64,000 nucleotides of DNA from the IMG/VR virus record IMGVR_UViG_3300028549_001428; one strand, 5' to 3'. A program made the position numbers and the translations under genes. Each line of letters opens with the position of its first letter. The stretch's first letter is position 1. Positions 16,040 through 20,323 of this stretch are shown piece by piece. Source of the stretch: a virus. Lineage: Duplodnaviria > Heunggongvirae > Uroviricota > Caudoviricetes. Below the pieces are notes generated by a model. That model ran no database searches. It was given only the letters and a program-made list of their open reading frames with translations, and was not told where the DNA came from.

Positions 16040-16759
16040 TTAAAGCGGAGTAAGTGTCTTTGGATTGAATCCATATGATTTAACCCATTTTCTTATTGCA
16101 TTATCGGATACTCCATATTTCAATCTCAATGGATAATATCCATATTCCTTGATATCAGATATTAATACATCTATATTAGGGCGTGATGTTTTTCTTTTAT
16201 TAAGATCACTACATTTTACACATGATTTAGATTTTTTGATTTTGTTATTACCGCAACTACATATATATACTAACTTATTACATTTACCTGCAAATGTATT
16301 TGTTTGGCTATGACAATGAGGACATAATATACGTAGATTTTGTAGTCTGTTATCATTATATATACCATTTATATGATCTATTTGTAATACCAATGGTTTA
16401 TTATTCCATATAGGTAATTGATTACATATGTAACATTGGTTTAACAAAAAACCATCAGCTATCAATCTCTGTTTAAGTCGAGTTCTATCATACGTTGAGT
16501 TTTCTACGAGTATGTCAGATAACGGAATTTTTTTAGATTTAGATATTAATTTAATTGCTTTGTATGGTGAAGTAAAATGATCAGTAGATAAACCTAGTGC
16601 TTTAATTCGTTTATGTAATGTTTTATTGTTACCTCCTCTATTATTTGAACCTATGTATGAATGCACTTCATTGAATGAAGTGCATTTTTTAATCAAATCA
16701 GTAAACTCAGCATCATTAAATTTTACCCATATTTTACTATATAATTTTTGTATATGCAT
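16040..16759 (-). CDS. HNH homing endonuclease
   Basis: CxxC, 'LQIDHINGIYNDNRLQNLRILCPHCH'; C-terminal HTH 'KYGVSDNAIRKW'. Confidence 0.9.
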   Translation of the reverse strand: MHIQKLYSKIWVKFNDAEFTDLIKKCTSFNEVHSYIGSNNRGGNNKTLHKRIKALGLSTDHFTSPYKAIKLISKSKKIPLSDILVENSTYDRTRLKQRLIADGFLLNQCYICNQLPIWNNKPLVLQIDHINGIYNDNRLQNLRILCPHCHSQTNTFAGKCNKLVYICSCGNNKIKKSKSCVKCSDLNKRKTSRPNIDVLISDIKEYGYYPLRLKYGVSDNAIRKWVKSYGFNPKTLTPL

Positions 16760-16817: not shown

Positions 16818-16888
16818 TTGACCTAGCTGGGATCGAACCAGCGTACTTCGGGTCAGAGCCGAAGGCACTACCTCTATGCTATAGGTCA
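16818..16888 (-). tRNA. tRNA-Gln(CTG)
   Basis: Cloverleaf: TGACCTA acceptor, TTCGG-CTCTGAC-CCGAA, GCTGG-TTCGATC-CCAGC; U1-A72; CCA not encoded. Confidence 0.9.
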
Positions 16889-16896
16889 TCATTATA

Positions 16897-16979
16897 TTGT
16901 CCATGTAGGAGTCGAACCTACAGTATCCTTTCGGATGCCAGATTCAAAATCTGGTGAGCTACCATTACTCTAATGGACA
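16897..16979 (-). tRNA. tRNA-Gln(TTG) with an atypical long variable arm
   Basis: TGTCCAT acceptor, CCAGA-TTTTGAA-TCTGG, variable hairpin ATCC-GAAA-GGAT, GTAGG-TTCGACT-CCTAC. Confidence 0.85.
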
Positions 16980-16984
16980 TCATA

Positions 16985-17057
16985 TTGTCCGTGCTGGACT
17001 CGAACCAGCATCCTTGTGCTTCAAAGGCACCTGCTCCACCAATTGAGCTAACGGACA
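16985..17057 (-). tRNA. tRNA-Gln(TTG)
   Basis: TGTCCGT acceptor, GTGC-CTTTGAA-GCAC, GCTGG-TTCGAGT-CCAGC. Confidence 0.9.
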
Positions 17058-17170
17058 TCAAATTTATTTATCACATTTAGAACACTTAATTTCCTTATTA
17101 TAACTGAAATATAATAAGGAACCACATCTATCACATAACTTTACATAATACATATACACCTCTATATACG

Positions 17171-17198
17171 AAAAGAACTCTTGCTTCTGCAAGAGTCC
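17171..17198 (-). terminator. Attenuator terminator upstream of the tRNA-Gln operon
   Basis: GGACTCTTGC-AGAA-GCAAGAGTTC-TTTT. Confidence 0.85.
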
Positions 17199-17222
17199 CT
17201 TAATTTATTTGCCATAACAGCA

Positions 17223-17285
17223 TCAAAAAGGTGGTCTAGCAGAGCTATCCATTACTTGTTGTTGCTGTTGTTGTAAATTCTTCAT
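17223..17285 (-). CDS. Gln leader peptide MKNLQQQQQQVMDSSARPPF
   Basis: ATG 7 nt after the -10 box; 5 CAA + 1 CAG tandem codons; followed by a terminator and three tRNA-Gln genes. Confidence 0.8.
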   Translation of the reverse strand: MKNLQQQQQQVMDSSARPPF

Positions 17286-18281
17286 ATTATTAATATAGTT
17301 CTTTTTTAGCGATTTGTCAATACTTTTTTGATGTTTTATTGTTTTAGGGTCTATTTTATAGTAACGGCACCATCGACGAACAGCATTATCAGACACACCA
17401 TATTTAGCCCCAACTAAAACAAAATTACTTTCTTGTATTTCTTTAATTAATACATCCAATGTAGGTCTATCTACCTTTCTCTTATGTGGAATTAAAGTTG
17501 AATTAATCATCCGACAATCATATCCACAACATACTTGTTTGATCGTATTTGGTATAAAATTATTATTACATATAGGACATATTTTTGTTTTATATCTTGA
17601 TGTATTATCGTATAACGAAATTAAATTTATCCCTTTATGCTTATTTGATGCATACTCAAGATATGGTTTGATTTCTACCTTTGTCAATATCTTTAATACA
17701 TTAGGAGACTTAACTGCATTAAATTTAGCTTTAGTATGTTCTGTTATATAGCCTTTAACTTCTATAAATGTACCATCAACATATCTAAAATCAGGATGGT
17801 ATTCATGTGTTTCATTTTCCCATTCATATGGAAATGATATAGTATTACGGATAAATGATATGTTATGATCTAAATGATATATCACCCATGCTAATTCCCA
17901 TGTACTATCACACCAATATCCGTTATACCATCCAGATTTTCCTCTACCTGCACCTTTACGCACACCGCCTGAGTTTTGTTTTAATTTTGTAATTGTTTCT
18001 GGTGTATGTTTCTTTCCCTTAAAATATGCTATACGAACACCAGTAGCATAGTTGGATTTAACCATATCACTATATACTTTAAGTCGCTGATCTGTATGTT
18101 TAGTTAATCCTTTATTCCATGTAGTTATCGTTCTTGTATCTCTACCACATTTATGATTAACACCAATTCCATGCATTCTCCATATATGAGATGCGATTCC
18201 TTTACTACCATATTCTTCTCCACATGTAGGACATGCATATTTGTTTGTATGTGGATTTAACCACTCTATTTGTATTTTCAT
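17223..18281 (-). CDS. PD-(D/E)XK-type putative homing endonuclease with Zn finger, NUMOD3-like motif and HTH
   Basis: 'CPTC..HIWRMH', 'FKGKKHTPET', 'DSTWE..YHPDF..FIEVKG', 'KYGVSDNAVRRW'; reads in frame into the leader peptide. Confidence 0.75.
   Translation of the reverse strand: MKIQIEWLNPHTNKYACPTCGEEYGSKGIASHIWRMHGIGVNHKCGRDTRTITTWNKGLTKHTDQRLKVYSDMVKSNYATGVRIAYFKGKKHTPETITKLKQNSGGVRKGAGRGKSGWYNGYWCDSTWELAWVIYHLDHNISFIRNTISFPYEWENETHEYHPDFRYVDGTFIEVKGYITEHTKAKFNAVKSPNVLKILTKVEIKPYLEYASNKHKGINLISLYDNTSRYKTKICPICNNNFIPNTIKQVCCGYDCRMINSTLIPHKRKVDRPTLDVLIKEIQESNFVLVGAKYGVSDNAVRRWCRYYKIDPKTIKHQKSIDKSLKKNYINNMKNLQQQQQQVMDSSARPPF
17292..17320 (-). promoter_or_regulatory. sigma70-type promoter of the tRNA-Gln operon
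   Basis: TTGACA-17 nt-TATATT. Confidence 0.85.
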
Positions 18282-18584: not shown

Positions 18585-19448
18585 TCATTTTACATGTACC
18601 CAACTTCTGCCATAGATCACATTAGCTATGGTAGATTTAGATACATTCATTAAATCAGCAATGATTCGTTGAGATTTACCAATAGAATACAAATATCGTA
18701 TTTGTATAACACCTTCCTCAGTTAACTTAGAATCCGATCTAGATTCTCCTTTAGGAGCTATTACATGTGATCGTATTTTTACATCGTATATAATACCACT
18801 ATCTTGTATATATTTTTTTATCAATCGTTTTGATGTTGGTATATCATATTTTTTCAACCATTTTCTAATTGCATTATCTGATACCCCATATATTTCACCT
18901 ATTTGCACCATCGTCTTATCACTTAAATGAGAAATTAATTCAGTCATAGATGGCATTTTTGATACATTAAAATTTATACCATGAGTATCTATTATTTTTC
19001 TAATTCGATTATAGTTTCCACCAAATGCCTGTAATCCTAATTTCATTAACGCTATACGAGCATTTGGCGATTCTTTAATTACATCAATAAAATCGTTATC
19101 TGATTTATATTTTTTGTTAAACTGTAATTTAACATTAGCCCCAGAAAATGTTTTTGTTTGACTATGACATGTAGGACATAATAATCTAATATTATCAATT
19201 AAATTATTATGACGATCACCATCAATATGGTCAACCTGTAATGTTACAGGCTTATTCATCCAAGTGTTAATCCCACATATAGAACACACATCTTTAATAA
19301 TTTCATGTTTAATCAACATACTTTTAATTAACGATCTATTTACATAATGTGAATGAGCACAAAATACTGAATCAAATGGCGTTCTAATAGTACCCCCATT
19401 TGATATAGGAGAATTCCAATCATGTTTTAAGTTATCTAATTTATTCAT
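18585..19448 (-). CDS. HNH homing endonuclease with HTH modules
   Basis: 'LQVDHIDGDRHNNLIDNIRLLCPTCH'; 'YGVSDNAIRKW'; 'KGE...SKLTE'. Confidence 0.9.
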   Translation of the reverse strand: MNKLDNLKHDWNSPISNGGTIRTPFDSVFCAHSHYVNRSLIKSMLIKHEIIKDVCSICGINTWMNKPVTLQVDHIDGDRHNNLIDNIRLLCPTCHSQTKTFSGANVKLQFNKKYKSDNDFIDVIKESPNARIALMKLGLQAFGGNYNRIRKIIDTHGINFNVSKMPSMTELISHLSDKTMVQIGEIYGVSDNAIRKWLKKYDIPTSKRLIKKYIQDSGIIYDVKIRSHVIAPKGESRSDSKLTEEGVIQIRYLYSIGKSQRIIADLMNVSKSTIANVIYGRSWVHVK

Positions 19449-19565: not shown

Positions 19566-19658
19566 TGGGTTGAATAGGATTCGAACCTATCTACTGCGAG
19601 TCCATACGGCAATTTGGTAAAGCAGGGAGGATTTACAGTCCTCTGCCGTTATCAACCC
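19566..19658 (-). tRNA. tRNA-Tyr(GTA), non-canonical (no D-arm, enlarged variable region)
   Basis: GGGTTGA/TCAACCC-A acceptor, GAGGA-CTGTAAA-TCCTC, ATAGG-TTCGAAT-CCTAT; only 8 nt between acceptor and anticodon stems. Confidence 0.75.
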
Positions 19659-19668
19659 AAAAATTTAG

Positions 19669-19776
19669 TGGGGGACAGTGGATTCGAACCACCATAGTAA
19701 GTTACATATTACGTAATTTTTTCACCTACACGTATGTCACCCATACGCCACGCTAACCAATATCGTGCTGTACCCC
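19669..19776 (-). ncRNA. tRNA-like RNA with aberrant anticodon loop and ~37-nt variable region
   Basis: Acceptor GGGGTAC/GTCCCCC, D-arm CACG..CGTG, CGTATG-GGTGA-CATACG, T-arm GGTGG-TTCGAAT-CCACT. Confidence 0.6.
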
Positions 19777-19831: not shown

Positions 19832-19860
19832 AAAAAACCCACTTCTTGTGGAAGTGGGCT
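19832..19860 (-). terminator. Attenuator terminator upstream of the Tyr/CAT/Lys/Phe tRNA operon
   Basis: AGCCCACTTC-CACAA-GAAGTGGGTT-TTTT. Confidence 0.85.
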
Positions 19861-19896
19861 TTATAACTTTTGTCATACGCATTTTACGTATATAAG

Positions 19897-19968
19897 TTAT
19901 CGCATCACACTTCCTTTCGGAGTTGTTTTTATAAATCGATAATACTTATATATACGTTTCATGTTCAT
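19897..19968 (-). CDS. Leader peptide MNMKRIYKYYRFIKTTPKGSVMR
   Basis: ATG 7 nt after the -10 box; K/Y/I(ATA)/F/R-rich control segment; 3' part complementary to the terminator arm. Confidence 0.75.
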   Translation of the reverse strand: MNMKRIYKYYRFIKTTPKGSVMR

Positions 19969-19974
19969 ACCTTT

Positions 19975-20002
19975 AATATAGTTCTTTTTTGTTGTTTGTC
20001 AA
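19975..20002 (-). promoter_or_regulatory. sigma70-type promoter of the second tRNA operon
   Basis: TTGACA-16 nt-TATATT; shares AAAAAAGAACTATATTAA with the Gln-operon promoter. Confidence 0.8.
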
Positions 20003-20095: not shown

Positions 20096-20288
20096 AAAAA
20101 TAACGACATGGATACAGTACATTCCTTTAGACACCACAAGTTCTCATTGGTTAGAGAACTAGGAACTCTTAGCCTTGTCAAGCATGGGATACTTTCTCGA
20201 TTTCTACTACACGGGATTTCACCGCCACTCCTTACAACTCGTCCATAGAGTCATAAAGTTTTCGATCACCGACCATATCCATGTCGTT
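20096..20288 (-). ncRNA. Unidentified ~190-nt structured RNA
   Basis: Predicted TSS coincides with a 17-bp terminal stem AACGACATGGATATGGT/ACTGTATCCATGTCGTT followed by a U-tract; internal hairpins. Confidence 0.7.
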
Positions 20289-20294
20289 AAGAGT

Positions 20295-20323
20295 AATATA
20301 GTAATTCAAGTAACGAATGTCAA
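20295..20323 (-). promoter_or_regulatory. sigma70-type promoter of the ncRNA
   Basis: TTGACA-17 nt-TATATT. Confidence 0.85.

Follow-up and report, generated by a model that had tools for sequence, protein, structure and literature searches.

The known attenuators of the trp, his and ilv type control biosynthetic, transport and synthetase genes, and in E. coli the chromosomal leader-peptide attenuator pheM-pheST controls a synthetase. Phage tRNAs, in turn, are said in the PARIS paper to counter tRNA-depleting defence. C. glutamicum ilvBNC is governed by the leader-peptide attenuator IlvL, in which the order of synthesis sets the switch (PMC11857589). T-boxes are riboswitches in which tRNA status decides between terminator and antiterminator and uncharged tRNA is bound directly (TBDB, 10.1101/2020.06.17.157016). 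Also described are the Anabaena trn tRNA array, which is induced under translational stress and has the repressor TrcR (PMC10272220, PMC8421152), and defence systems that act on tRNAs: retron-Eco7 depletes tRNA-Tyr, PrrC targets tRNA-Lys, and tRNA supplied by the phage rescues (PMC11555353, PMC10264068).

Here we analyse a phage locus that resembles the first of these systems in build and differs in what it controls. The initial annotation of the window (the whole 64,000-nucleotide stretch of DNA under study) had proposed that a glutamine leader-peptide attenuator precedes three tRNA-Gln genes. In silico analysis confirms the attenuator layout, with strong backing from related phages: the Gln leader recurs ahead of Gln tRNAs in diverged relatives, and the leaders of other tRNA blocks contain codons for the amino acids of those blocks; a nuclease fusion, a Tyr unit within the window and a clade-wide system had been overlooked. 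On the evidence of sequence and folding models, we consider it probable (roughly 0.8) that the Gln unit is a trp/his-type transcription attenuator that depends on the ribosome and has the sensed tRNA as its output.

The window is a segment of a T4-like phage, with portal, capsid, neck and UvsX genes. In cultured phages its capsid finds no match better than 32%, and no cultured relative was found by capsid comparison or by blastn of the Gln unit against cultured phages, where the best 15 of 234 matches covered tRNA bodies only. Three MAG bins contain distant relatives, each bin under a different name. Three homing-endonuclease-like genes are interspersed in the tRNA region (16040–16759, 17223–18281 and 18585–19448, minus strand), and a Lys module present in the related records G001, G003 and G005 is missing from the window.

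All the parts listed in the initial annotation were found in their places on the minus strand. The sigma70-type promoter TTGACA-17-TATATT (17292–17320; TTGACA 17320–17315, TATATT 17297–17292) matches at 11 of 12 positions and is one of four minus-strand sites of the TTGAC..TATA[TA]T type. Six nucleotides separate its −10 box from the ATG of the leader, and the predicted transcription start lies at or adjoins this ATG, which would make the leader ORF leaderless. This ORF of 20 codons (MKNLQQQQQQVMDSSARPPF; 17223–17285, ATG at 17285, TGA at 17223) has stand-alone orthologues in G001, G003 and G005. Its putative sensor is a run of six Gln codons, five CAA and one CAG (17256–17273), which is unchanged in G001 and, as had been claimed, consists of the very codons read by the UUG and CUG tRNAs downstream. 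No other (CAR)6 occurs in the 64 kb, whichever strand is read; Gln makes up 6 of 19 leader codons (binomial P 1.7e-5).

Beyond a predicted intrinsic terminator, the tRNA search placed tRNA-Gln(TTG) at 16985–17057, a second tRNA-Gln(TTG) at 16897–16979 and tRNA-Gln(CTG) at 16818–16888, all on the minus strand. The second of these genes has a long, GNRA-capped variable arm, which is unusual for Gln. Between the terminator and the tRNAs lies a zinc-ribbon-like ORF of 29 aa (17064–17153, minus strand) with a Shine-Dalgarno sequence as well as a CxxC..CxxC pattern, whose Pfam matches are all sub-threshold. It is kept in G001 and L003 and absent in G003 and G005; it would be a co-gated passenger of the Gln switch.

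The leader is in frame with a homing-endonuclease-like ORF of 352 aa (17223–18281, minus strand), which reads through the promoter and ends at the stop codon common to both. The Gln run might then be a low-complexity nuclease tail and the hairpin the terminator of the nuclease, the tRNAs being transcribed otherwise. An in-frame fusion also occurs in L003, across a 3-nt indel and with a stop inside the nuclease; since the two fusions represent one ancestral event, L003 adds no independent support. Many viral contigs, moreover, have a Gln run after TATATT, in most cases with no relation to tRNAs. The pattern TATATT, ATGA and five CAR gave 118 loci in 55 of 64 collection parts and no new lineage; a downstream tRNA was called at five, of which the three genuine ones were already known members of the clade. 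The tRNA calls at L125 and L129 were judged false, as lying inside an ORF (L125 examined).

Such a chance arrangement is nevertheless highly improbable, being largely refuted by nuclease-free relatives. In G001, G003 and G005 the leader occurs by itself, and the endonuclease ORF is absent upstream of it. A paralogous nuclease ends 3 aa beyond the shared HTH region, so that the extra 37 residues of the window's nuclease are translated promoter and leader. Between 17060 and 17170, where a separate promoter would have spoken against the initial annotation, there is no site of the TTGAC..TATA[TA]T type, and none other of that type precedes the tRNAs; the pairing of leaders with tRNAs, ranked by permutation below, argues the same way. 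Because three relative lineages carry the leader standing alone, sequence comparison indicates that it is not merely a nuclease tail.

Folding of the Gln unit predicts three mutually exclusive hairpins, with the switch point just beyond the last Gln codon. The predicted terminator (17171–17198, minus strand) consists of a hairpin at 17198–17175 with a 10-bp stem (−15.1 kcal/mol) and a TTTT tail. In the predicted anti-antiterminator or pause (1:2) hairpin (17216–17269, minus strand; −17.9 kcal/mol), the Gln codons pair with the stretch that follows the stop codon; a 1:2 hairpin involving Gln codons was obtained in all four Gln units folded (−15.2 to −20.7 kcal/mol). The predicted 5′ strand of the antiterminator (17228–17245, minus strand) pairs with the 5′ arm and loop of the terminator (nascent RNA: −15.9 to −18.6 kcal/mol). 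The initial annotation had the distal part of the leader pair with the terminator. In ViennaRNA, 17245–17235 does pair with the arm and loop, with one U-U mismatch, but the closure is CCTT/AAGG and not CC/GG as proposed; G003 and G005 have G-C at the place of the mismatch. The leader region as a whole folds at z = −4.6 (0 of 200 shuffles equal), for which the terminator alone could account, and the antiterminator duplex of the window is marginal when taken by itself (17 of 300 shuffles as good).

The geometry of the unit is compatible with control by a ribosome. Counted from the last Gln codon, the antiterminator strand of the window occupies +13 to +25 and the stop codon ends at +33; the terminator lies 24 nt past the leader stop. 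The distance from the last Gln codon to the start of the antiterminator is 13 nt in G001 and G003 as in the window, and 9 nt in G005. With assumed ribosome footprints and the last sensor codon assigned by hand, the antiterminator survives footprints of 6–12 nt in 4/4 Gln units and is lost with the ribosome at the stop codon; a footprint of 15 nt weakens it in three of the four. Direct blocking of the terminator by the ribosome was rejected, as the leader stop is 23–40 nt from the stem in 20/20 units.

Folding with ribosome-masked segments, as suggested at the outset, yields the antiterminator in nascent RNA; at equilibrium the terminator prevails wherever the ribosome is placed (P 0.96–1.0), and equilibrium folding of the full RNA makes no switch visible in the window's Gln unit. 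A switch in this unit must therefore be kinetic. Across the 20 units folded (L070 was omitted as a near-duplicate of L065), the leader–terminator duplex averages −13.1 kcal/mol, compared with −9.0 in 99 controls (p = 3e-4, one unit per module). Swapping leaders and terminators among the Gln orthologues gave no clean compensation, since the G5 leader pairs equally well with the window terminator and with its own.

The tail of the window's Gln terminator is U4 followed by CGUAUAUA, the weakest U-tail of the 20 units and the reason why a terminator scanner missed this hairpin on the minus strand. So short a tail would suit a hairpin that serves as a processing or stability signal of the tRNA precursor (RNase entry, 5′ protection) with the leader tuning access, as would the 114 nt and the small ORF that separate it from the first tRNA, and the leaders of Pro blocks that lack U-tailed terminators. 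We regard this as very unlikely. The Gln hairpins of G003 and G005 carry U5–U6 tails 8–9 nt before the tRNA, tails are canonical in most of the 20 units, and the competing helix is directed at the 5′ arm of the terminator, all of which speak against such a role.

The same arrangement recurs around diverged sequences. In G001, to which L001, L002, L004 and L005 also belong as the same phage, this promoter, leader and terminator immediately follow a tRNA-Lys, with no nuclease, and the genes near the Gln unit are 71–73% identical to the window at the DNA level. Diverged Gln leaders are found in G003 (MKNLTLQQQQQQQQMHSQARIVV) and in G005 and G002 (MKTMNQQQQQQSMQSQARVVG), each ahead of its own, distinct terminator and of three tRNA-Gln genes. 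A stand-alone leader, a terminator and Gln tRNAs are common to G001, G003 and G005/G002, while flanks and terminators differ. CAA and CAG are mixed in every Gln run, and every Gln block has both UUG and CUG tRNAs. The −35 TTGACA is invariant, and TATATT present, in 5/5 aligned Gln units; in the window, G001 and G005 the putatively leaderless ATG follows the −10 box by 6–7 nt, and G003 has a Shine-Dalgarno sequence. Between the window and G001, the 73 functional nucleotides (Gln run, antiterminator and terminator) show no change, compared with 11 changes in 42 neighbouring nucleotides (p = 6e-6, with borders taken from the fold and similar variants seen beforehand). Two of the window–G001 changes shift a 7-mer that is still fully complementary to the Gln run, giving a register-shifted 1:2 hairpin.

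The window has another unit built in this way, 2.7 kb upstream of the Gln unit (19834–20002, minus strand), with a promoter at 20002–19975, a leader at 19968–19897 (MNMKRIYKYYRFIKTTPKGSVMR), a terminator at 19862–19834 and an antiterminator strand predicted by folding at 19914–19908. Its leader contains Tyr, Phe, Lys and Met codons and precedes a Tyr(GTA)-like gene and Met, Lys and Phe tRNAs; a nearly identical leader in G001 stands before Tyr, Met, Tyr, Phe and Phe tRNAs. The Rfam family Thr_leader matches this Tyr unit at 23.8 bits, below the gathering threshold of 55, and our mechanical leader/terminator script missed the unit. Two tRNA-like genes (19567–19658 and ~19669–19775, minus strand) were missed by default ARAGORN and by Rfam: one is a Tyr(GTA) gene that lacks a D arm and carries a long insert, the other is degenerate. 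G005 has a similar D-armless Tyr-like gene (L058, before position 1443). Also nearby, at 20103–20286 (minus strand), is a structured non-coding element (−55.7 kcal/mol, terminal stem of 12–13 bp) with its own promoter at 20323 and no Rfam match.

Leaders before other tRNA blocks extend the pattern. A tRNA search of 26 virus records gave matches in 16, and clusters were taken from 12 of these (not G006, G018, G019 or G025). The mechanical scan covered 20 tRNA-bearing stretches from the window and 11 records, G002 being omitted as a duplicate of G005. Before tRNAs, 21 of 22 terminators are preceded by a short ATG ORF that ends 21–35 nt upstream of the hairpin, and the 22nd ends an ordinary gene; by a similar rule, 10 of 99 other terminators have such an ORF. 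As the modules are phylogenetically related, these unit counts are not independent. G001 has a leader and a terminator at seven of its eight tRNA blocks, in units for Tyr/Met/Phe, Lys, Gln, Leu/Ser/His/Cys/Trp, Asn/Arg, Glu and Ala/Gly/Thr/Ile/Arg/Met/Val/Asp; the Pro block is its only one without a U-tailed terminator.

The initial annotation had called for a search of related phages for leader codons that vary with the downstream anticodons, and the codons indeed follow the amino acids of their blocks beyond permutation nulls. The true pairing of leaders with tRNAs ranks 1/5040 in G001 (seven units), 1/720 in G005 (six units) and 1/6 in G003, tests that are not independent because the G001 and G005 modules are orthologous. 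The ranks are the same for hand-picked leaders and for a rule that takes the best of all ORFs with ARAGORN calls only. In the distant phages G014, G020, G021 and G022, a single leader stands ahead of an array. The three array leaders tested encode 19, 20 and 19 distinct amino acids, counts reached by 2.7%, 0.12% and 1.7% of ~15,300 real protein windows. Two further leaders, found by eye and post hoc because their weak U-tails had been missed by the strict filter, precede partial arrays (L064, before 1615; L066, reverse, before 2141). Their codons fit their own arrays at 27/34 and 27/32, compared with 8/34 and 6/32 for each other's; their amino-acid sets are complementary and match 9/9 and 10/10 isotypes of their own arrays. 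Taken as sequence, this design of leader, terminator and tRNAs is real, non-random and clade-wide.

These counts also bear on a translated leader with a leaky terminator, tuned by the mean speed of ribosomes, that would set the dose statically or sense translation stress in general, with no useful tRNA-specific response in vivo. The weak U4 tail, the dominance of the terminator at equilibrium and the freeing of the antiterminator by any stall before codon 12, whatever its cause, all fit such a device. It would, however, need neither leader codons that track isotypes block by block nor all 20 amino acids before full arrays, and we consider it unlikely.

Several observations describe the range of the design. 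Leaders of 37–39 codons with 19–20 amino acids precede near-complete arrays at L067 1506 (reverse), L069 2052 (reverse), L065 423 and L070 1618. Arrays of 37–39 tRNAs in L060 (before 2301, reverse) and L061 (before 1740) have no leader; some 400 nt of conserved upstream sequence there are non-coding and apparently structured. The script scan found no unit at the G007 and G008 arrays, at one G013 array or at the scattered tRNAs of L063 and L068, and no U-tailed terminator unit at either Pro block. Both Pro blocks (L007, before 1093; L056, reverse, before 1157) have a promoter and a leader of 28–31 codons with Pro-Pro near its end; they are perhaps Rho-dependent or decayed. Some upstream leaders also hold codons of the next block: the Lys leader has Gln codons, the Asn leader Glu codons and the Tyr leader Lys codons (seen at L001 4587–4646 and L007 4006). 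In G001, the score of the Lys leader for Gln exceeds its score for Lys. The Tyr block of G003 begins with a suppressor-type tRNA with a TTA anticodon (L055 1251, ARAGORN). Among the flanks L009–L054, tRNAs were found in L009, L010 and L013 only.

In the attenuator reading of the Gln unit, RNA polymerase would start at about the ATG and a ribosome would load on the leader. When CAA and CAG are decoded slowly, the ribosome would wait on the Gln codons, the antiterminator would form first and tRNA-Gln would be transcribed; when decoding is fast, the ribosome would reach the stop codon and the terminator would form. An untranslated leader would favour the 1:2 hairpin and termination. The switch would rest on the order of synthesis, and ribosomes that finish the nuclease would cross the same Gln codons and stop, so that read-through transcripts would be gated too. 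Leader translation, kinetic control and the trigger are what we infer here. The likeliest trigger would be a loss of usable tRNA, through defence nucleases, host tRNA decay or the demand of the phage itself; this is a likelier signal than amino-acid starvation because extra tRNA would not cure starvation.

Extended to the clade, these jumbo phages may possess a genome-wide modular tRNA thermostat that detects a destroyed tRNA and transcribes only its replacement, a proposal we rate slightly above even odds. Each block would have its own codon-matched attenuator, or each array one leader with all 20 amino acids. What tRNA genes do for phages has long been asked, and a codon-specific switch would tell the hypotheses apart: codon compensation that is constitutive can do without a sensor, whereas replacement of lost tRNAs predicts negative feedback of this kind. 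If true, attenuation would be extended from enzymes to tRNAs, and a ready-made panel of sensors for tRNA supply, each with its own amino-acid specificity, would be at hand; if the thermostat holds, leader codons would be a readable record of the tRNAs attacked in uncultured hosts. As the unit is ~150 nt long and has a sigma70-type promoter, it is testable by a plain reporter.

Searches of the open-access literature, mostly by listings, found no description of tRNA-gene attenuation or phage tRNA attenuators, and no Gln-sensing leader-peptide attenuator was found there either. T-box membership was rejected, as no Rfam match at E <= 1 was obtained when stem I and the T-box bulge were sought; the Rfam leader families (Thr_leader, His_leader, Trp_leader and others) were likewise rejected, with no match on the Gln unit. 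In T-boxes, as would hold for the Gln unit, tRNA status decides between terminator and antiterminator; a T-box, however, binds uncharged tRNA directly, involves no leader translation and could not respond to the loss of a tRNA. The Anabaena trn array is turned on by translational stress, as the Gln tRNAs would be, but through a protein repressor that acts at initiation and is not codon-specific; PMC8421152 mentions neither attenuation nor a leader. Defences that deplete tRNAs are a likely selective reason for the Gln unit. In those studies, however, phage tRNA supply is ascribed to a strong promoter and attenuation is unmentioned (PMC11555353, PMC10264068).

The closest systems are the leader-peptide attenuators. 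The Gln unit shares with the trp, his and ilvBNC attenuators a short leader, control codons, the hairpins predicted as anti-antiterminator, antiterminator and terminator, and a predicted read-through upon stalling, and with IlvL a start codon that lies at or adjoins the transcription start (PMC11857589). It differs from trp, his and ilv attenuators in being a phage unit, in having tRNA genes as its output and in its repeated amino-acid-specific modules. It does not control biosynthetic, transport or synthetase genes. Like pheM-pheST, it would be an attenuator for a translation component of the sensed amino acid, which is the synthetase there and the tRNA in the phage unit. With tRNA genes and a 29-aa ORF as its output, the Gln unit would therefore be a variant rather than a plain member of the trp/his/ilv type.
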